DNA of 64,000 nucleotides from Candidatus Babeliales bacterium (GCA_963743635.1 CAVUQO010000002.1:288001-352000), one strand, 5' to 3'. Numbered from the stretch's first letter, positions 13,188 through 53,832 are shown. Notes: generated by a model from the sequence alone, not told the origin. Numbers and translations are program-made.

Positions 13188-13748
13188 TTATACAGATTTA
13201 TTCGTATTAATCTGTTCTAGTATAGGTGTGGTTTCTTTAGATTTAAGGAACCATTCAAGAGCACCGTTTTTAAGAGCAGGATTTCCTAAAGATTTTTGTG
13301 AGAACATTGGTTGTTGTACGTGGCGTGCAAGCATACGCGATGCTTTTTGAGCATGAAACAAAGATCTTGTTGCTAATGCCCCGGAGGCAACCGCAATACC
13401 TGCAGTAATAGCAGCAGGTGCAGCCAAGGCATCTATATTACCACCACCTGAAATGATCATCCCGCTATCGAGTCCGACCATTAATGAGCCTGTCATTGTT
13501 AAAAAGGCACCACCGGCGACGGCTGCAAGAGCTACAAATCGGTTGCCAATTTTGATATAACGCAATGTCTTTAAGGTGCCTTCAGGACGAGCTTCATAAC
13601 GCATCGTGTGGCGTCCGTGAGTATCTTCGTAGTTATGCGTAACCTCGCCAACTGGTGGATTATCAAGAGGGTTGGCATGCAACAGCTCTGTAGGCAGTGC
13701 GCTGAAAGTCAAAAGGAAGGCGATTGTTTTAATGATATTTTTATTCAT
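13188..13748 (-). CDS. Secreted/membrane hypothetical protein with two hydrophobic helices
   Basis: Signal peptide MNKNIIKTIAFLLTFSA; two Gly/Ala-rich hydrophobic segments. Confidence 0.75.
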   Translation of the reverse strand: MNKNIIKTIAFLLTFSALPTELLHANPLDNPPVGEVTHNYEDTHGRHTMRYEARPEGTLKTLRYIKIGNRFVALAAVAGGAFLTMTGSLMVGLDSGMIISGGGNIDALAAPAAITAGIAVASGALATRSLFHAQKASRMLARHVQQPMFSQKSLGNPALKNGALEWFLKSKETTPILEQINTNKSV

Positions 13749-13866
13749 AAATTGGTCTCTGATTGTTTTTTGATATGTTTTTTCATTGTTAAATAGTACC
13801 ATAAATGAACGTGAAAAAGAAATAGAGCTTGTAGGATAGAAGTCGCATTATATAGAAAGAACTACC

Positions 13867-14226
13867 ATGCATAAAATTTTATTATTACTCATAGCAACCA
13901 GCACATACGCATCATTGATGGGTATGGCACAACACAAACAAATCACTCCGGCATTACCTGCCAACAATGGGGCGGCGAGAATGGAAGATATTGAATTGAC
14001 TCGTAACACGGCCACTCAATCTACTACTTCGGATAATGCAAGAGGTTTTTGCGATAATTCCTGTGACCTCATGTGTTGCGGTGTCTGCGCAGCTTGCATG
14101 CTTTGCCCTATTTTTAGTGCCGCAGTCGTATGGGATACCGCACACGTCATATCTGACTGCAAAGAAAAAAAGTGCTATCCGGAAACAAAAGAAGCCGCTA
14201 AATTATGCTACTGCTTCTTGCATTGA
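13867..14226 (+). CDS. Secreted Cys-rich hypothetical protein
   Basis: Signal peptide ending LMG|M; CDNSCDLMCCGVCAACMLC; ends CYCFLH. Confidence 0.75.
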   Translation: MHKILLLLIATSTYASLMGMAQHKQITPALPANNGAARMEDIELTRNTATQSTTSDNARGFCDNSCDLMCCGVCAACMLCPIFSAAVVWDTAHVISDCKEKKCYPETKEAAKLCYCFLH

Positions 14227-14252
14227 GAGCGCCTGCGCTTTATCATAGATGT

Positions 14253-14288
14253 AAAAAAGCCGTTCTGCAGTAATACAGAACGGCTTTG
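14253..14288. terminator. Bidirectional terminator
   Basis: AAAGCCGTTCTG..CAGAACGGCTTT between convergent genes. Confidence 0.75.
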
Positions 14289-14330
14289 TATATTGAGCTG
14301 TTTTTTCGTGGAGATTATGCTTGAGATGAC

Positions 14331-15218
14331 TTATTTCTGTTCAGCTTCATCAGCCCAACGTTCGAGATACTTTGCGCGGGTGATTAGTGGTGGATGTGGA
14401 TTCCAATGATCATGTTTGAATTTCATTAAAGAGCCAAGTGTCGATTTCGCTTGAGGAATACCGATTTCATTGGCAAGAACTTCTCCATCTTCTTGAAAAT
14501 CCTGTATTTGGGTATTGTCCATCTTGCGGAAGAAGGTTGCGACGGCACGAGCCAGAACCGGTTTATCCCTCAATGCTGCATCAGCATCTCTTTCTAAACA
14601 TTTGAGCATGCCAAGTTTGATGGGTATGGCGAGTGTATACAGCGCAGCTGCCAGCGGAATACGCAAGAGCGATCGTGTTATTGATGGGGGGATGATAGAT
14701 GCTTTTGCAGGAGATAATGCTTCTTTTACGCAATGCAGCCCGAACGGTAATGAGGCAGCAATTGCAGGAAAATAAGTGAGGTGATTTCTATCGATATGCC
14801 GTTTTTCGTGAAAAAGTGCACCAAGGAAAGCATCATCACTGAGACCGTCATATTTACTGGCAACCTCAATGGCGAGAGGGTTTATAATGATGGTGTTACG
14901 TGGTGCAGCCATCGCAAAGGGGAACTCTGGATGCTTCTTAATGGTCACTTCATCTAAATCATTGATTCCGTGCTGATGTGCTAATGCTAAAATATTTTCT
15001 CGATAGTTCGAGCAGATTGGCAGAGTTTCTTTTTCAATGATATCAATGATTTCCTCTCTTGCGACGATACTGTTGTAAGCAGGAAGTGCGACAATGGTAC
15101 CCCAATAGCCGGCAGCTCCAATGTAGGAGGCCAGTTTTTTGAATGGAGTTGCCTGAATCGATCCCAGGGATCCGATACTGAGCGCAAGCGCTATGATTTT
15201 ACCTATTCGTTTGTTCAT
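14331..15218 (-). CDS. Secreted M48-like zinc metalloprotease
   Basis: Signal peptide; HEKRH (HExxH), ERDAD, HPPLITR. Confidence 0.8.
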   Translation of the reverse strand: MNKRIGKIIALALSIGSLGSIQATPFKKLASYIGAAGYWGTIVALPAYNSIVAREEIIDIIEKETLPICSNYRENILALAHQHGINDLDEVTIKKHPEFPFAMAAPRNTIIINPLAIEVASKYDGLSDDAFLGALFHEKRHIDRNHLTYFPAIAASLPFGLHCVKEALSPAKASIIPPSITRSLLRIPLAAALYTLAIPIKLGMLKCLERDADAALRDKPVLARAVATFFRKMDNTQIQDFQEDGEVLANEIGIPQAKSTLGSLMKFKHDHWNPHPPLITRAKYLERWADEAEQK

Positions 15219-15263
15219 AATGATCTTTCATTTTTAGCTATTGTTAATAATCTACTACTTAAA

Positions 15264-15292
15264 ATATTATCAAATAGAAAACAGCTTGTAAA
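15264..15292 (-). promoter_or_regulatory. Sigma70-type promoter TTTACA-N17-TAATAT (extended TG)
   Basis: Near-identical arrangement at 21662-21690. Confidence 0.55.
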
Positions 15293-15440
15293 ATGGTGTG
15301 TAGGTTTGGCCTAGCCGCCACATTGATTTTATATACAGAGTAGAACAGGTTCGAATATCGCTCCACCTCATCCCTGAAGAATCGTTTGAGATCATTGCAT
15401 TGCATATGCTTGGATTTAATCCGTTAGAATCCTAATTCCT

Positions 15441-15483
15441 CTACACCACCGGTGCAGAATCATCCACAAGTCGAATCTCAATG
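15441..15483. repeat. 43-bp boundary repeat, copy 1
   Basis: CGGTGCAGAATCATCCACAAGTCGAATCTCAATG; other copies at 16901, 18202, 20171, 23073. Confidence 0.9.
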
Positions 15484-15653
15484 TGACCGATCGATGGCTA
15501 CCGTTCCCAGATATTTCATAGCAAAATACTTTATCTTTTAGTGGCATTGTATTACCTGTATACATGCTTTTTGCACTCAAAACCCTTTTTATATTTGGGA
15601 TATTAAGATATGCTAATGGGCGTTATGTTTTTTTGCAGTGAAGGTACCACATT

Positions 15654-16898
15654 ATGAATAAAAGAACTCAATTATTAAAGGTTATGATGTTCAATCTCCT
15701 TGTATGGACTCAAATGCAGGGGATGGACGCAGGCTCTTCTTTTACTGAACCTGAACAATATATAAAAAATTTTAATGAACGATATTTTCCTCGTAGGACT
15801 GAAGAGGAAAAAGCGCTAGAAGCGCTCGCAGATGGAATAGACAATCCATATCGTTTTGGACCTATTGCCATTGATCGAATAACTGCACAAGATCTTGCTG
15901 ATATAGAAGGTTTAAAAGAAGGTGAATCTCTCTTTCATATGGAATCCCGTATTAGAACGTATGTAGAAAAGCGAACGCTCATGGCAAAAGCGGGGCGACA
16001 ACGATGGTATGATAAGTTCATGGATTGGGATTGCAACGAACCAGACCGTGATGAGCATCTTATAAATTGTATTTTTGGAGCGGCTATTCGTAGAGAGGAT
16101 GTTCCTCTTGCAAAAGATTTACTTAAGCATGGCACAAATCCCAATAAAGACATACAGCTGCGCTGTGGTTATCGAGGGCAGCCTATTTTTGAAGTTATGA
16201 CAGTACCAATGCTTGATTTATTGGTTTCTCATGGAGTCGATCTTGATAAGCCTAATAGATATTATGGACCTGGATATTATCCACCACCTGGATATGAAGT
16301 ATCTCTCGTGCATCATGTAGTTGCATATAGGTCACCAGAAATTTTGGAGCGATTGCTTCAATGTCCAGGAGTTAACGTCAATGCCCGAAGGAACCCAGAA
16401 GCTAACTTCACTGGTCCAACGAGAAACGATCTTCCAGCTTCATACAGGCTTCCACCTTCATACAGGAGTGATATTAAGGACACGCCATTGCATGTATGGG
16501 CTAAGCTGTCCCCTTTTAAGTCGAAGTTTCTGGGTATACAAAAGCAGTTAATGAGTTTAATACGCGCCGGTGCCGATGTGACCTTAAAAAATAGCGAAAA
16601 TTACACAGCGCTTGATATTCTTCGCTCAAAGCTTGCAGATCCTTATGAATACGAGATGCAAATAGTAGTCCAACTCGTCGCCCAACTCGCTGCTTTAATG
16701 CCTCCACAGCCTCAAGCAGATATTGCAAGAAAGGCAGTAGTCGCCACAGAGGAATCAGCCTGCGTTATTTGCTTGGAAAATTTTCAACAATCTGATGATC
16801 GCACTACATTACCATGCGCACATGTATTTCATACGGCGTGTGTAAATCCCTGGATTGCATCAAACAGCACATGCCCTACTTGTAGAACTGCGATATAG
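15654..16898 (+). CDS. Secreted ankyrin-repeat protein with C-terminal RING-H2 (E3 ligase-like), copy 1
   Basis: Signal peptide; LLKHGTNPN, TPLHVWA, LIRAGADVTLKN..TALD; CVIC-x15-CAHVFHTAC-x10-CPTC. Confidence 0.92.
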   Translation: MNKRTQLLKVMMFNLLVWTQMQGMDAGSSFTEPEQYIKNFNERYFPRRTEEEKALEALADGIDNPYRFGPIAIDRITAQDLADIEGLKEGESLFHMESRIRTYVEKRTLMAKAGRQRWYDKFMDWDCNEPDRDEHLINCIFGAAIRREDVPLAKDLLKHGTNPNKDIQLRCGYRGQPIFEVMTVPMLDLLVSHGVDLDKPNRYYGPGYYPPPGYEVSLVHHVVAYRSPEILERLLQCPGVNVNARRNPEANFTGPTRNDLPASYRLPPSYRSDIKDTPLHVWAKLSPFKSKFLGIQKQLMSLIRAGADVTLKNSENYTALDILRSKLADPYEYEMQIVVQLVAQLAALMPPQPQADIARKAVVATEESACVICLENFQQSDDRTTLPCAHVFHTACVNPWIASNSTCPTCRTAI

Positions 16899-16900
16899 AT

Positions 16901-16943
16901 CTATACCGTCGGCGCGGAATCATCCACAAGTCTAATCTCAATG
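16901..16943. repeat. 43-bp boundary repeat, copy 2
   Basis: CTATACCGTCGGCGCGGAATCATCCACAAGTCTAATCTCAATG. Confidence 0.9.
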
Positions 16944-17107
16944 TGGTTGATCGATGGATATTGTTCTAATCTTCCATAGAAAAATACTTTATCTTTCAGC
17001 GATATAGTACACCTGTATACATGCTTTTTGCACTCAAAACCTTTTTATATTTGGGATATTAAGATATACTCATGGGCGCTATATTTTTGCAGTGAAGGTA
17101 CCACATT

Positions 17108-18199
17108 ATGAATAAAAGAACTCAGTTATTAAAGGTTATGATGTTCAATCTCCTTGTATGGACTCAAATGCAGGGGATGGACACTGATTCTTCTTTTACT
17201 GAAGAGGAAAAAGCGCTCCAAGCGCTCGAAGATGGAACAGGCAATCCATATCGTTTTGGACCTATTGCCATTGATCGAATAACCGCACAAGATCTTGCTG
17301 ATATAGAAGATTTAAAAGAACGTTATTCTCGCTATCTTATGACATTCGATATTAGAACGTATGTAGAAAAGCGAACGCTCATGGCAAAAGCGGGGCGACA
17401 ACGATGGTATGATAAGTTCATGGATTGGGATTGCAACGAACCAGACCGTTATAAGCCTCTTATAGATAAGATTTTTGAAGCGGCTCTTAGTAGAGAGGAT
17501 CTTCCTCTTGCAAAAGATTTATTTAAGCATGGCGCGTATCCCAATGAACGCATAGCGCGGGGGCCTTTTTTGGGAGTTAGAACAGTACCGATGCTTGATT
17601 TATTGATTTCTCATGGAGTCGATATTGATAAGACTGGATGTAATCTACCTATCGTGCATAATGCAGTTGCATATGACTCACCAAAATTTTTGGAGCGATT
17701 GCTTCAATGCCCAGGAGTTAACGTCAATGCCCGAAGTAACCCTGGTCGAATGAAAGACGTTTTTGAATGGAGGCAAGATTTTGAGGACACGCCATTGCAT
17801 GTATGGGCTAAGCTGTGCCCTTGGGAGTCGCGGTTTCCGGGTATACAAAAGAAGTTAATGATTTTAATACGCGCCGGTGCCGATGTGACCTTAAAAAATA
17901 GCAAGAATCACACAGCGCTTGATATTCTTCGCTCACATATTGCAGATCGTACATATTGTGTAATGCTGCGCGAACTCGCCGACCAACTCGCTGCTTTAAT
18001 GCCTCCACAGCCTCAAGCAGATATTGCAAGAAAGGCAGTAGTCGCCACAGAGGAATCAGCCTGCGTTATTTGCTTGGAAAATTTTCAACAATCTGATGAT
18101 CGCACTACATTACCATGCGCACATGTATTTCATACGGCGTGTGTAAATCCCTGGATTGCATCAAACCGCACATGCCCTACTTGTAGAACTGCGATATAG
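17108..18199 (+). CDS. Secreted ankyrin-repeat protein with C-terminal RING-H2, copy 2
   Basis: Tandem paralog of 15654; same signal peptide and nearly identical RING. Confidence 0.92.
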   Translation: MNKRTQLLKVMMFNLLVWTQMQGMDTDSSFTEEEKALQALEDGTGNPYRFGPIAIDRITAQDLADIEDLKERYSRYLMTFDIRTYVEKRTLMAKAGRQRWYDKFMDWDCNEPDRYKPLIDKIFEAALSREDLPLAKDLFKHGAYPNERIARGPFLGVRTVPMLDLLISHGVDIDKTGCNLPIVHNAVAYDSPKFLERLLQCPGVNVNARSNPGRMKDVFEWRQDFEDTPLHVWAKLCPWESRFPGIQKKLMILIRAGADVTLKNSKNHTALDILRSHIADRTYCVMLRELADQLAALMPPQPQADIARKAVVATEESACVICLENFQQSDDRTTLPCAHVFHTACVNPWIASNRTCPTCRTAI

Positions 18200-18201
18200 A
18201 T

Positions 18202-18244
18202 CTACATCGTCGGCGCGGAATCATCCACAAGTCTAATCTCAATG
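18202..18244. repeat. 43-bp boundary repeat, copy 3
   Basis: CTACATCGTCGGCGCGGAATCATCCACAAGTCTAATCTCAATG. Confidence 0.9.
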
Positions 18245-18405
18245 TGGTTGATCGATGGATATTGTTCTAATCTTCCATAGCAAAATACTTTATCTTTTAG
18301 TGGCATTAATATCTGTACACATGTCTTTTTTGCATTCAAAGCATTTTGTATTTGGGGATTATGGTATGCTAATAGACGTATTTTTTGAAACGAAAGAGAT
18401 TATAT

Positions 18406-19260
18406 ATGAATAAAAAAATGCAGTGGATAGCGGTGATGTGCATTGGGTTTTTGACGGGGTGCGTAAGCGCTATGAATGATCGTGGCATGCACTGGGCATG
18501 TTTTAACGATGATCATGATCAAGCTCAGGAATTACTAAACGAAAGTAAAAATAGTGTCCATAATTTTACCTTGAACAATGTAGAAATCAGATCTATACCC
18601 GTTCTCTTTTTTGCCAAATCAATTAAGATTGCGGATTTATTAATGCGATATGGTGCGGATCCATATCAGGTAGCTACTTATTATCCCCATGGTGGTGAAA
18701 CTATTATTCATAATTCAATGAGCGCAGATTATTCGATTCCACTTTTGAAACATTATATTGATACTGTACGAATTAATATCAATACAACCACAGCAAATAA
18801 AGATACCCCCTTGCATTATTGGGCACGTTCATCACTTTTTACGTCATCACATTATTTAGGTGTGCAGCCGTATTCAGGGTATTTATCTATCGCACAAGAA
18901 AAATTAAAGATACTCATCGCAGCGGGGGCAAATACAATGCTCAAAAATGCTACGGGGGATACAGCTTTGGATGTTCTCCGACGAAAAAAACTTTCATATA
19001 TTGACAGGCTTCCTGTTACAAAGCAAGAGCGTGAATTGCGAAATGAGGCTTTTGACATACTTGCTCTGCTGCTTAATGCGGCAACAAGAAAACAAATTGC
19101 AAGCATGCCAGAACAGCCTTTTTGTGTTATTTGTCAGGGCGAGCTTGAAGAATCTGATGATCGCACTAGATTACCTTGTACACATGTATTTCATATGACG
19201 TGTATAAATAGCTGGATTACATTAAACGGAATTTGTCCTACTTGTAGAAGAGAAGTATGA
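18406..19260 (+). CDS. Secreted ankyrin-repeat protein with C-terminal RING-H2, copy 3 (divergent)
   Basis: Signal ..CVSA|MN; LMRYGADP, DTPLHYWA, GDTALD; CVIC..LPCTHVFHMTC..WI..CPTCR. Confidence 0.9.
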   Translation: MNKKMQWIAVMCIGFLTGCVSAMNDRGMHWACFNDDHDQAQELLNESKNSVHNFTLNNVEIRSIPVLFFAKSIKIADLLMRYGADPYQVATYYPHGGETIIHNSMSADYSIPLLKHYIDTVRININTTTANKDTPLHYWARSSLFTSSHYLGVQPYSGYLSIAQEKLKILIAAGANTMLKNATGDTALDVLRRKKLSYIDRLPVTKQERELRNEAFDILALLLNAATRKQIASMPEQPFCVICQGELEESDDRTRLPCTHVFHMTCINSWITLNGICPTCRREV

Positions 19261-20162
19261 AAATGAATTACATGAAAAACGCTTATTTTAATCTTATCGC
19301 GCTTGTGGCGCTTTGCATGAGTGAGTCGCTGTATGCAATGGATCAGTTGAGAGCTTTTGAAAATTATTTTCAAAATGGTGATCTGTGGGTCGATGAAAAT
19401 GAAGATGTAATGTCTGATCATATCGTCAAAATACAGAATCATCTTGATGTGCAGCGGCATCTTGGAATGCGGACATATCCCCCGATAAAGACACCGCCCC
19501 CTTTAAATGATGCAACGCAATTAAAATCAGCATTGATGCCACAAAATGATATTGATCGACTTTATGGAGAATACGAGCAGCATGTAAATAAATTTGTTGG
19601 CGCTGTTGTATGTCAGCAAGAGGTTTTAAAGCGTTTGAGGCAAGAAGCATCAAAGTCAGAAAAGCAGACTGGCTTCTTTATTGAATTGCATCGAATATTC
19701 GAAGGTGTTGAGGCATTGATACTGGCTGGTTCAAAATGGCTTGCCGTAACCCGAGAATCGGGCGTAGAGCATTATCTCATTTTAGAGAAATGTCGGCCTT
19801 CTATGGAACAGCAAAAGTACATCAAGTATCGCGTTGATACTCCCGCAATACGAGCAGAATTTTGGAAGTATGCACTGCAACAAGCGCTCTTAAATAATTG
19901 GCAGGCGCATTACAACGATGAGCATTATTGTTTTTGGAAGCATGCAAGCCCACTATCAATGCTCATCATACGGCACCAACTCTATAAAGGGTTTGAAGGT
20001 TTAGACTATAAAAAGACCACTGAATATACTGGTCCTCCGCTTTGTCGCCTAAAATTTAAGGACGGAAAGTTTTGTAATTGGCCGTATGAGAAATTAGAAA
20101 AGTTGCTGGCATTAGCGGATGAAGAGGCGAATGAGCTTAATACAGAACTGCTCTGGAAGTAA
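19257..20162 (+). CDS. Secreted hypothetical protein
   Basis: 301-aa ORF overlapping the RING gene stop (ATGA); signal ..SLYA|MD. Confidence 0.8.
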   Translation: MKMNYMKNAYFNLIALVALCMSESLYAMDQLRAFENYFQNGDLWVDENEDVMSDHIVKIQNHLDVQRHLGMRTYPPIKTPPPLNDATQLKSALMPQNDIDRLYGEYEQHVNKFVGAVVCQQEVLKRLRQEASKSEKQTGFFIELHRIFEGVEALILAGSKWLAVTRESGVEHYLILEKCRPSMEQQKYIKYRVDTPAIRAEFWKYALQQALLNNWQAHYNDEHYCFWKHASPLSMLIIRHQLYKGFEGLDYKKTTEYTGPPLCRLKFKDGKFCNWPYEKLEKLLALADEEANELNTELLWK

Positions 20163-20170
20163 AGGGGGAT

Positions 20171-20428
20171 CTATGCCGTCGGCGCAGTGTCATCCACAAG
20201 CCGAATCTCAATGCGTTCTATTCCTTTTCCCGGGCGATCTCTTTTGAGCGTCACAAACCCAACTTCACTGGTTTTCGCTATGATCATTTGAACACCATAT
20301 ATATTGTCACGTATGTATCGATTATCATCCGCTTCTCCATCTTTAAGATATTTTTCAAGCGTAGGTTTCTCCATGGCGAGGAGTGGAGATGTCATCATGG
20401 ATAGAATGAAAACGAGTTGTTTTTTCAT
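20171..20428 (-). CDS. Small secreted protein whose C-terminus is encoded by the 43-bp repeat (copy 4)
   Basis: Signal ..PLLA|ME; N-terminal half paralogous to the 20443 gene (YIRDNIYG vs HIRDNICG); ends IEIRLVDDTAPTA. Confidence 0.7.
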   Translation of the reverse strand: MKKQLVFILSMMTSPLLAMEKPTLEKYLKDGEADDNRYIRDNIYGVQMIIAKTSEVGFVTLKRDRPGKGIERIEIRLVDDTAPTA

Positions 20429-20442
20429 GGAATTCCTTCGAA

Positions 20443-20913
20443 TTAATTAGTTACTATTTTTTCAGAAGAACCAAACTTCTTCTCGTATTCTTTAATGTTA
20501 TATTGCCGTCGCTTTTCCATGAGCTGTGCCAGGCGATCATTCATGTTAGCAGTGAAAGCCTCTAGTGCTTTATGCGCTTCTTCAATCGATATATTTTCCA
20601 CTACTTTTCGCTCAATAAAGCCTTCTTTGTCATGTTTGTCTATCTTTAACAGGGTAACAGAGTAAGGAGTTTTATCTTCTATTTGCATGAGTGTTTTCAT
20701 GAACTTTTTTGCCTCAGGGCAAGAGAGAAGATATCCCATAGGCCAGAAGCAGCCTTTTTTCTCTACTATTATTTCAGTGCCACAAATATTATCTCTAATG
20801 TGGGCTTCATCTTCTACTTTTTGTTCCTCGAGATATTCCTCTACATTTTCATAGTTCTTACCAAAAATTGGCAATACCATTATTGATAACATTAAAACAA
20901 GATTCTTATTCAT
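20443..20913 (-). CDS. Secreted hypothetical protein
   Basis: Signal MNKNLVLMLSIMVLPIFG; paralog of the 20171 gene. Confidence 0.75.
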   Translation of the reverse strand: MNKNLVLMLSIMVLPIFGKNYENVEEYLEEQKVEDEAHIRDNICGTEIIVEKKGCFWPMGYLLSCPEAKKFMKTLMQIEDKTPYSVTLLKIDKHDKEGFIERKVVENISIEEAHKALEAFTANMNDRLAQLMEKRRQYNIKEYEKKFGSSEKIVTN

Positions 20914-21028
20914 ATGCATTCTTTGGGATATAGGGTTGAAAAATTCAAGAACTGAGCGCCATTGTATCAAGTTTGAATATACTCCGCAATCAACTGCGGA
21001 ATCGGGGAGTAAAGGTCTTTTTAACAGT

Positions 21029-21057
21029 AAAAAAAGCCGCCCCGAAGGACGGCTTTT
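21029..21057. terminator. Terminator hairpin
   Basis: AAAAGCCGCCCCGAAGGACGGCTTTT downstream of the 21088 gene. Confidence 0.75.
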
Positions 21058-21087
21058 AAAAATTCAAGGTGGAGTTGCTTTTGCTGT

Positions 21088-21612
21088 TTAGTTGTCTTTA
21101 GCATGGATGTATTCATTCATCGCGAAAGCTCCCAAACCAGTTGCTATCATAGCTAATCCGGCTGTTTCACCTACTCTTCCACAACGCGATAAGATCTTTG
21201 CTGTTCGTGCAGTGCGATATTTATCGCTGAGTATTAACGGAATAACTTGGATACCAGATCCGACCATATAAGTCGTGTATCCTGTGCCTATCATACCGAA
21301 TGCTATGCTGGAGCCTTTCGAATATGTAGAACGTTGCGGAGTTTTTACTTCGGTAGTGTTTTTAGTTGCTTCAGCAGGTTCTTTAATATCAATAATGGTT
21401 TTAGTTTTTTCAGCAGGTTTTGTAATACCAACATCAGCGCTGTTAGTTCTTTCAGCAGGTTTTGTAATACCAACATCAATTGCGGTAAAATCGGTTTTTT
21501 TGAGCGCTGCTATTACTTCGTTGCATAGATCCCTAATAAAATTAGCTTTAATCGTTCCCAAGGCGCTGGTAGCCAAAACGATGACTGCTATTTTTAGTAT
21601 TCGTTTCTTCAT
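21088..21612 (-). CDS. Secreted/membrane protein with internal DVGITKPAE repeats
   Basis: Signal peptide; three degenerate 14-aa repeats; two C-terminal hydrophobic helices. Confidence 0.78.
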   Translation of the reverse strand: MKKRILKIAVIVLATSALGTIKANFIRDLCNEVIAALKKTDFTAIDVGITKPAERTNSADVGITKPAEKTKTIIDIKEPAEATKNTTEVKTPQRSTYSKGSSIAFGMIGTGYTTYMVGSGIQVIPLILSDKYRTARTAKILSRCGRVGETAGLAMIATGLGAFAMNEYIHAKDN

Positions 21613-52533: not shown

Positions 52534-53832
52534 ATGAAAGTTTCCATTCTCACGGTTTTTCCTGATATATATAACTGTTTTTTGCAGACCAGTTTAGTGC
52601 GTCGCGCGCAAGAAGCGGATCTCATTACGATTGAAACCCACGGGTTTATGTCCTATGTGCCGCCCAAAGTGCGCATCGACTCTCCTACGTTTGGTCCTTC
52701 TGCAGGTATGCTTATTCGGCCAGATGTGGTTGAACAGGCGATAGATTCATGTGAAAAAACACATGGCAATGCATTTAAAATCTTCTTTTCTCCGCATGGC
52801 AAAAAATTAGACCAACCACTTCTGCAATCGTTAGCCGATCGTTTAAAGGAACAAAAGCATTTGATGCTTATTCCTGCTCGCTACGAAGGTATGGATGCAC
52901 GCGTTGAGCAGTATTATGCCGATGAGATCATTTCCGTTGGTGATTTTGTACTCATGGGCGGTGATATACCAGCGATGATGTTGCTTGAAGGGTTGATGCG
53001 TTTGATACCAGGCGTCATCGGCAAACAGGAGTCAATCGAACGAGAATCGTTCAGGGGACCGTTTGTGGATCATCCTGAGTATACGGCGCCCGTCGATTGG
53101 AAAGGTATGCTGGTGCCCGAAATTGTACGCTCTGGACATCATGCGGCAATTGAGGCCTGGCGTCGGGAACAGTCTGCTGAACGAACAGTGCTTTCTCATT
53201 TTTCTTGGTTACGCGCTGCACCAATGACGGTTGCTGAGCGTGATCTTGCTAAAAAATACATTCCCAATCACTATGCCGTATTAATGCATGCGGATGTTAT
53301 GGTGCGTGGGAGTGATCAAGTGGGTACTACTTCGGTGACGTCTATTGATATTCATGATATTGCCAGATCAGCAAAAACGTATGGATTGGAACAATTTTTT
53401 ATTGTAACGCCTTTGCGTGATCAGCAGCATATCGTAAAAACGCTCCTTGATTTCTGGCAAAAGGGTGCCGGTTTTGAGTATAACGAATCTCGGTTCGAGG
53501 CGCTCAAGCAGGTGAATTTGCTCGATTCGCTGGATCAGGTTATGGCCGCGATAGAAGAAAAAGAGGGCAAAAAGCCACTCCTGGTGGTCACTTCAGCACG
53601 AGAAATGGGTAGCATTCCGACGATATCATATGAAGATCAGGCAATTGTATGGGCACATAAGCGTCCTGTATTGCTGATATTTGGTACCGGCGGGGGATTG
53701 TCTGAGGCTCTCATAGAGCGCTGCGATTACCTGCTCAAGCCAATTAAAGGCTTTTCATCCTATAATCATCTATCGGTCCGTTCTGCAGCAGCAGTGATAT
53801 TTGACCGGTGGTTGGGATTGAATGAAAAATAA
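52534..53832 (+). CDS. trmD: tRNA (guanine-N1)-methyltransferase TrmD fused to a second SPOUT-type methyltransferase domain
   Basis: RYEGMDARV, SVGDFVLMGGD, SGHH; C-terminal DIHDIARSAKTYG..FGTG..YNHLSVRSAAAVIFDR. Confidence 0.93.
   Translation: MKVSILTVFPDIYNCFLQTSLVRRAQEADLITIETHGFMSYVPPKVRIDSPTFGPSAGMLIRPDVVEQAIDSCEKTHGNAFKIFFSPHGKKLDQPLLQSLADRLKEQKHLMLIPARYEGMDARVEQYYADEIISVGDFVLMGGDIPAMMLLEGLMRLIPGVIGKQESIERESFRGPFVDHPEYTAPVDWKGMLVPEIVRSGHHAAIEAWRREQSAERTVLSHFSWLRAAPMTVAERDLAKKYIPNHYAVLMHADVMVRGSDQVGTTSVTSIDIHDIARSAKTYGLEQFFIVTPLRDQQHIVKTLLDFWQKGAGFEYNESRFEALKQVNLLDSLDQVMAAIEEKEGKKPLLVVTSAREMGSIPTISYEDQAIVWAHKRPVLLIFGTGGGLSEALIERCDYLLKPIKGFSSYNHLSVRSAAAVIFDRWLGLNEK

Follow-up and report, generated by a model that had tools for sequence, protein, structure and literature searches.

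Can a bacterium that lives inside a protist act on its host through ubiquitin ligases built like the host's own? This question is raised by three adjacent genes in a stretch of 64,000 nt from Candidatus Babeliales bacterium (GCA_963743635.1 CAVUQO010000002.1:288001-352000), called here the window, in which positions are counted from the first letter of the whole stretch. An earlier note on this DNA had placed a tandem trio of secreted ankyrin and RING-H2 proteins at 15654..19260, and all three open reading frames (ORFs) lie exactly there on the + strand. Each combines a signal-like N-terminus and an ankyrin domain with a RING-H2 finger that is complete and sits at the C-terminus. We read the three proteins, from their sequences, as probable exported mimics of eukaryotic RING-type ubiquitin ligases (E3) of an intracellular Dependentiae protist parasite, which would make use of the ubiquitin-charged conjugating enzymes (E2~Ub) of the host. 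The probability we would attach to this reading is roughly 0.65.

The RING-H2 finger

The RING-H2 finger occupies residues 370-411 (16761-16886) of gene 1 (15654..16898, 414 aa), residues 319-360 (18062-18187) of gene 2 (17108..18199, 363 aa, 78% identity to gene 1) and positions 19123-19248 in gene 3 (18385..19260, 291 aa when counted from a TTG codon, 38% identity to gene 1). For gene 3 an alternative start at ATG 18406 would give 284 aa; it lines up with the MNK[RK] start of the paralogs and is preceded by an AAAGAGA stretch, and it is likely to be the true start rather than TTG 18385. A complete C-terminal C3H2C3 finger with the conserved Trp and Pro had been described for each protein, and the pattern C-V-I-C...LPC[AT]HVFH..C...W-I...CPTCR is literally present in all three, with zinc ligands spaced as C-x2-C-x14-C-x-H-x2-H-x2-C-x10-C-x2-C. 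The hidden Markov model search for zf-RING_2 and Ank that the earlier note had proposed places the RING above cut-off in all three proteins and Ank in genes 1 and 2. For zf-RING_2 (Pfam PF13639) the scores are 53.5, 53.0 and 47.1 bits for genes 1, 2 and 3 (E 3e-14, 4.1e-14 and 2.9e-12) against a Pfam cut-off of 27.3 bits, and as the same family has no match in any of the 14 control genomes, chance is excluded.

All three fingers keep the eight zinc ligands, an Ile at C1+2, the helix Trp, the Pro after C7 and the Arg after C8. In RING domains the hydrophobic residue at C1+2, the helix Trp, the Pro after C7 and an Arg or Lys after C8 are the contacts with E2~Ub. Over a family set of 20 sequences (the window trio and 17 metagenome relatives) the eight ligands are all kept in 19, and among these 19 the C1+2 residue is hydrophobic in every case (19/19), the Trp is present in 17 and the Arg after C8 in 15. 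When the RING of gene 2 was compared with the sequences of solved structures, 56 distinct PDB chains matched at E <= 0.001, the best being Arkadia (2.8e-13), followed by RNF165, RNF13, ZNRF3, RNF38 and RLIM, at about 50% identity. Arkadia (RNF111), RNF165, RNF38, RNF13 and ZNRF3 share with the trio the ligands and their spacing as well as the Ile, the Trp, the Pro and the terminal Arg, but the likeness (E from 2.8e-13 up to about 1e-12) is limited to the finger itself, some 45 residues; the remainder of each protein is unrelated, and so is the bacterial genomic setting. In the structural model of gene 2 described below, the RING part consists of short strands and a helix with a pLDDT of about 86-96, while the Foldseek ranking obtained with this model is dominated by the ankyrin domain. 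No U-box or SP-RING-type family is found among the 16-19 Pfam families listed per trio gene at E <= 0.1. By these features the RING of the trio is classed as a canonical eukaryote-type RING-H2 and not as a member of a prokaryote-specific RING family.

Prokaryotic RING families and bacterial ubiquitin-like operons do exist, and prokaryotic RING fingers were reportedly surveyed in 2011 by Burroughs, Iyer and Aravind. The three fingers could then be part of a ubiquitin-like conjugation or anti-phage system working inside the bacterium, for which a weak Prok-RING_4 match (E 0.014-0.025, below cut-off) might be taken to speak. We regard this as very improbable. At E of about 1e-14 the finger matches the eukaryotic RING-H2 type, the Pfam families of E1, E2 and deubiquitinating (DUB) enzymes are absent from the ten scanned proteins of the trio and its neighbours, and PADLOC gives only a sub-threshold match of 19.9 bits to PDC-M72A in gene 2, with no stretch that passes alone. 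A signal peptide would moreover move the proteins out of the cytoplasm.

A second alternative is that the RING binds a host E2 and no substrate is ubiquitinated, whether the E2 is sequestered or blocked, the modifier is another one (SUMO, NEDD8) or the finger acts as an interaction module. Productive E3s and E2 binders are inseparable from sequence alone, and the Arg after the last Cys is missing in 4 of the 19 family RINGs. Yet this Arg and the Ile, Trp and Pro are all kept in the three window genes, the closest solved relatives are active ubiquitin E3s working with UBE2D-type E2s, and SP-RING-type families are missing from the Pfam lists; we consider the alternative quite unlikely. If the three proteins are ligases that exploit the host, as we prefer to read them, the C-terminal RING-H2 would bind and activate a Ub-charged host E2, probably of the UBE2D type.

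The ankyrin domain and the growth of the array

The ankyrin repeats claimed for the three proteins were borne out by a family profile and by AlphaFold2 with Foldseek, the Pfam signal being weak: Ank reaches 29.8 bits in gene 1 and 24.2 bits in gene 2 (cut-off 21.1), and gene 3 lies below every Pfam Ank cut-off. In gene 1 an N-region with the conserved motif NPYRFGPIAID precedes the ankyrin region, which extends over about residues 131-345 (16044-16688). Gene 2 has five ankyrin repeats (residues about 116-297; 17453-17998) followed by a linker helix and the RING-H2, and gene 3 is built in the same order from an ankyrin region and the RING-H2, with no N-region. When 1.84 billion representatives were searched with a profile built from six family members, 104,269 proteins matched at E <= 0.001, of which 47 reached E <= 1e-30; long multi-ankyrin proteins, matched repeatedly at profile positions of about 110-275, are numerous among them, and plant ankyrin and RING proteins occur at lower ranks. 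The AlphaFold2 model of the ankyrin and RING part of gene 2, made from a 24-sequence alignment, has a mean pLDDT of 84.5 and replaces an earlier model from a 6-sequence alignment (mean pLDDT 58.4). In it five pairs of helices are followed by a linker helix and then by the RING, and Foldseek matches the model to designed ankyrin repeat proteins (DARPins) and natural ankyrin proteins with a target-normalised TM-score of 0.80-0.86 over about 180 columns. As modelled, an ankyrin fold of five repeats is present. This domain would hold a host protein near the E2, so that it may be ubiquitinated and then degraded or relocalised.

The duplication that relates genes 1 and 2 extends beyond the coding sequence and takes in about 215 nt ahead of the start codon. 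This non-coding block (15440..15653, + strand), duplicated along with gene 1, matches the intergenic stretch between genes 1 and 2 (16899..17107, + strand) nearly base for base, and presumably holds the promoter and the 5' untranslated region (UTR). A third copy upstream of gene 3 (18200..18384, + strand) is like the second across the first 170 nt or so and divergent afterwards. A sigma-70 consensus scan of the trio region gave 15 sites, nothing above the 17.1 +/- 4.3 expected by chance, and a scan for + strand terminators found none between the trio genes. Judging from the sequences, genes 1 and 2 are recent duplicates with the promoter region included, and the best explanation of the array is growth by tandem duplication of a promoter-plus-gene cassette.

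The two duplicates have not changed evenly. Over the last 69 codons (linker and RING) genes 1 and 2 differ once, whereas in the ankyrin region we counted 81.8 non-synonymous and 11.2 synonymous differences, which gives an omega of 2.3, or 2.9 once codons within three positions of gaps are removed (one-sided binomial test against the neutral site ratio, p about 0.006). These values come from a Nei-Gojobori count on a single paralog pair with no codon model, and gene conversion or clustered substitutions could distort them. Indels between the two genes fall in the inter-repeat loops. The pattern is suggestive of an ankyrin module that diversifies and a catalytic module that is kept near-identical, with gene conversion of the RING end as an alternative to strong constraint. 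If so, the diversification presumably tracks different or changing host targets.

Lineage and the way to the host

The polynucleotide phosphorylase (PNPase) encoded in the window has 65-69% identity to that of Dependentiae/Babeliales genomes, and by sequence the source organism is a bacterium of the Dependentiae (TM6, Babeliales). Cultured Dependentiae are described as obligate intracellular parasites of protists. One of them, Chromulinavorax destructans, is reported to be taken up by its phagotrophic protist host and to replicate in the host cytoplasm. The available account of this relative also gives signal peptides on 44% of its coding sequences, mentions outer-membrane vesicles, proposes that the Sec system exports effectors, and describes ankyrin proteins with signal peptides as appearing secreted.

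Signals were called with a loose home-made heuristic for the n- and h-regions, not with a trained predictor. All three proteins of the trio start with basic residues, go on with a hydrophobic stretch and have a small residue ahead of a Met, and the family shares a signal-end consensus, [I/M]-x-[A/G]↓M (the arrow marks the end of the signal), which resembles a signal peptidase I site; in gene 1 the signal-like N-terminus comprises residues 1-23 and ends as MQG↓MD. Within this genome the heuristic is positive for 9 of the 9 RING-type ORFs as against 680 of the 1328 ORFs of at least 100 aa overall (51%), the latter being consistent with the share reported for Chromulinavorax. Of 21 RING ORFs in loci of related genomes 15 are positive, and some of the six negatives look like failures of the heuristic or truncated ORFs. 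The Sec-type signal peptides assigned in the earlier note are thus putative: they agree with this crude test, which discriminates poorly here, and with the family-wide signal pattern. As a separate observation, [Q/H]-[A/G]-M, as at the signal end of the RING proteins, occurs within the first 36 residues in 46 of the 1328 ORFs genome-wide and may be a lineage-typical cleavage or sorting motif.

With regard to export machinery, two secretins are present in the genome, and two ATPases of the type II secretion system (T2SS) type score above cut-off. A VirB4-type ATPase was not found in it (the control search was positive in 1 of 14 genomes), nor was DsbA (positive in 8 of 14), and with no DsbA found the Cys-rich finger may cross the periplasm unoxidised. 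The N-terminal signal would route each protein through Sec, and the proteins could leave by a secretin-dependent (T2SS-like) route or in outer-membrane vesicles to reach the host cytoplasm, the site where the bacterium would replicate. That the ankyrins select host substrates and the RING recruits host E2 enzymes, as had been suggested for this locus, agrees with the lineage, the canonical RING residues, the diversifying ankyrin region and, as a weak negative, the lack of any E2 or ubiquitin match in the genome; for the remaining step, from the periplasm across the outer membrane and into the host, we infer a route from the two secretins, the two T2SS-type ATPases and the published observations on the cultured relative.

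The proteins could on the other hand stay in the envelope or on vesicles, held by an uncleaved anchor or, for gene 3, as a lipoprotein, and act only at the bacterium-host interface instead of diffusing through the host cell, for example by editing a ubiquitin coat that the bacterium receives from its host. The N-terminus of gene 3, MNKKMQWIAVMCIGFLTGCVSA↓MN, includes a lipobox-like L-T-G-C that ends its hydrophobic stretch, genes 1 and 2 have short h-regions, and the vesicles reported in the cultured relative would also suit such an arrangement. However, P0018, the nearest relative of gene 3, lacks the lipobox-like Cys but shares with gene 3 the V-S-A↓M site, and the consensus seen throughout the family looks like a signal peptidase I site. 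On balance we hold retention in the envelope to be unlikely.

Points against the reading and the integrity of the locus

Several observations weigh against reading the trio as exported ligases that act in the host. The heuristic flags half of all ORFs, and a signal therefore discriminates poorly in this genome; the nine RING-type ORFs amount to about six independent families, paralogs not being independent; and the short h-regions of genes 1 and 2 contain an Asn. A Sec signal alone brings a protein to the periplasm, not into a host cell. For expression, no RNA run containing the trio locus is listed among the sequencing runs. The lack of a match to the UQ_con E2 family or to ubiquitin in the 85%-complete genome, which would favour the use of a host E2, is a weak negative, given that the genome is incomplete and that both searches were also empty in every control genome. 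To these is added the possible distortion of the omega values mentioned above, and the fact that contigs break at the repeats and none spans the whole array. In the contig of one run (X2) position 16476 is joined to 17784 via 33 shared bases, with 1307 bases skipped; the joint may be either a recombinant form that occurs naturally and has one copy less, or an artefact of the assembly graph.

The last two points would also fit an artefact, that is, eukaryotic contamination, a misassembled repeat or decaying pseudogenes, and near-identical repeats such as the upstream block and the RING-coding 3' end do tend to break assemblies. The earlier note had itself raised contamination and misassembly as a concern, and what was found speaks against both. 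The ORFs are intact. The genome (1.45 Mb in three contigs, GC 0.40-0.42) has the window inside a contig of 594 kb, where the GC content around the trio is 0.39-0.42 like that of the genome, and the region is flanked by the Dependentiae housekeeping genes pnp, rph, glmM, pcrA, hflX and trmD. The locus is present in metagenome runs of two studies (peat and soil), which contain 89% and 73% of the words sampled from it; it is covered piecewise by contigs of four DNA runs, and the paralog-specific parts of all three genes are recovered at an identity of at least 99% in runs of both studies. Some 17 related proteins in other assemblies point the same way, and we consider an artefact extremely improbable.

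Comparison with known ligases

The earlier note had set the RING-H2 of the trio, a eukaryotic E3 module, against characterised bacterial E3 effectors that are mostly NEL, U-box or HECT-like, and the novelty is overstated by this. According to a 2026 review, bacteria do have RING and U-box E3s, SnRING of 2025 being the latest example and one with an atypical finger; single RING proteins had been named in Cardinium in 2012 and in Babela in 2015, and RING domains are present in about half of the related genomes searched by us (see the next section). SnRING (SNE_A12920) of Simkania negevensis is described as an active RING E3 with UbcH5b and UBE2T (PMC12591485). It is, as the trio proteins are predicted to be, a zinc-binding RING E3 of an obligate intracellular bacterium, and Simkania can infect amoebae. 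Its finger departs from the canonical form by a His as third ligand of Zn1, an NxxC in place of CxH and a Ser at the hydrophobic E2 contact, and the RING is N-terminal and followed by an alpha/beta domain of unknown function. Going by this published description, the trio differs from it in the canonical C-terminal C3H2C3 finger, the ankyrin domain, the putative Sec-type signal, the tandem array and the phylum. The other two reports are brief: one RING finger protein of Babela massiliensis, of the same phylum as the trio, is named as a potential E3 (PMC4378268), and CAHE_p0026 of Cardinium is a predicted RING E3 (PMC3486910). Each is given one sentence as a single RING gene, and no ankyrin fusion, tandem array or sequence analysis is reported in the parts of these papers that deal with them. 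In two further genomics papers on Dependentiae RING is not mentioned.

Other known proteins share one aspect or another with the trio. Legionella AnkB and the poxvirus ankyrin/F-box proteins likewise combine target choice by ankyrins with a small module for the host ubiquitin machinery (PMC3185573), the difference being that an F-box recruits the host SCF complex via Skp1 while a RING-H2 of the trio's type engages the E2 directly, with no host cullin scaffold. The plant proteins XB3/XBAT have the domain order of the trio, ankyrin then RING (PMC3596331), but theirs is a C3HC4 finger (RING-HC) as opposed to RING-H2, and they are described as cytosolic plant proteins that lack a signal peptide; the two ankyrin-RING fusions probably arose independently. 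The U-box effectors NleG, LubX and AvrPtoB are bacterial E3s that activate host E2~Ub with no covalent intermediate, and they differ from the trio, which has all eight zinc ligands, in having none.

In the searchable literature, with subscription journals outside its scope, the ankyrin-RING-H2 family, its diversifying tandem array and the spread of such proteins in Dependentiae are undescribed. Mimicry of E3s by intracellular bacteria is a well-established strategy, and the present case adds to its breadth and offers a good model, without introducing a new principle. SnRING is the sole characterised zinc-binding bacterial RING ligase, to which the trio adds canonical, predicted RING-H2 ligases fused to a putative target-binding domain. 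The proteins are small (284-414 aa) and come as three natural variants with almost identical catalytic ends, which makes them a clean system for two questions, namely how a protist parasite rewires host ubiquitination and how target specificity is reshaped after gene duplication. Dependentiae are a widespread and barely studied phylum which, as far as its genomes indicate, carries many eukaryote-like ubiquitin enzymes, most of them undescribed.

Relatives of the trio and predicted RBR ligases in Dependentiae

This genome has 7 matches to the Pfam family zf-RING_2 above cut-off, and such matches occur in 20 of 41 genomes from its family and order when it is counted among them; in several of those genomes two or three matches lie within a few kb. 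The other cases in this genome differ in their arrangement. L001:1303-2067 encodes a protein with a signal, a RING-H2 and ankyrins in reversed domain order, L005:1486-2682 and L006:1489-2466 are tandem neighbours, each with a signal and with the RING-H2 at the C-terminus, and L009:85-1680 combines a signal, WD40, ankyrin and a RING-like domain.

A profile search of 200 other Dependentiae genomes gave no full-length match to the trio family, the best being a partial one (7.7e-19) with an in-frame stop, and the relatives of the trio are consequently known only from metagenome proteins. The ankyrin-RING family of the trio is rarer than RING domains at large in Dependentiae. Among the 17 metagenome relatives examined the closest has 55% identity to gene 2 (BLASTP). 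Five proteins, P0025, P0056, P0102, P0118 and P0142, share the signal, the N-region motif and the ankyrin domain but lack the RING, from which it follows that the RING was gained or lost as a module within the family. A search for related loci in species genomes with a tighter alignment gave one RING-only locus. A word-indexed search with the RING region alone found only the two paralogs among 7 candidates and is uninformative on origin, and no relative of the trio was found in viral contigs.

The contig also encodes a ligase-like protein of another class. A 431-aa Ariadne-type RING1-IBR-RING2 (RBR) protein lies 14 kb upstream of the window on the + strand (G000:C2:273006-274301, L007:826-2121), with a signal-like N-terminus and a Ser-rich/coiled-coil region. 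Its residues 226-430 match ARIH2 (E 6e-31) over the whole RBR module, including the GCNHM.C of RING2, and residues 162-425 match ARIH1 (E 1e-26). Of 201 Dependentiae genomes sampled, 33 have IBR matches above cut-off, against none of the 14 controls, mostly two per ORF as in RBR ligases (G002, G010, G017, G024, G077, G110, G187 and others; L121-L126), and two genomes, G010 and G024, have 13 IBR matches each, often in tandem. The 2026 review says of RBR ligases that no bacterial counterpart had been identified so far, and our literature search for bacterial RBR ligases found none. We tentatively suggest, with rather less than even confidence, that Dependentiae possess a phylum-wide E3 toolkit of eukaryotic type, made up of RING-H2 arms-race arrays such as this trio, in which the catalytic module would be frozen and the ankyrin module positively selected, and of Ariadne-type RBRs, sent out by plain Sec signals with no injection machine. 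If this is true and the proteins are active, the RBR proteins would be the first bacterial counterparts of this transthiolating class of eukaryotic E3s.

Neighbouring genes

Directly downstream of the trio, an ORF of 301 aa (19257..20162, + strand) with a signal-like N-terminus begins with an ATG that overlaps the gene 3 stop codon (ATGA), an arrangement suggestive of co-transcription. It has no recognisable domain, there being no Pfam match and nothing usable from the protein atlas. It was also considered as a further paralog of the trio, and this was ruled out: hhalign to the family covers the first 34 residues only, with a probability of 12%. At some distance, the TrmD ORF (52534-53832, + strand, 432 aa) is covered by TrmD models over residues 1-222 only, leaving about 210 C-terminal residues unexplained. 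The stretch 13188-21612 around the trio is occupied on both strands by small ORFan genes, almost all of which have a signal-like N-terminus and match no family, and looks like an island of exported proteins. On the - strand of this stretch a 295-aa ORF (14331-15218) has a signal-like N-terminus, an HEKRH (HExxH) motif and no Pfam match; the protein atlas places it beside Peptidase_M48 clusters (score 0.95, 190 shared features), and its product may be an exported zinc protease.

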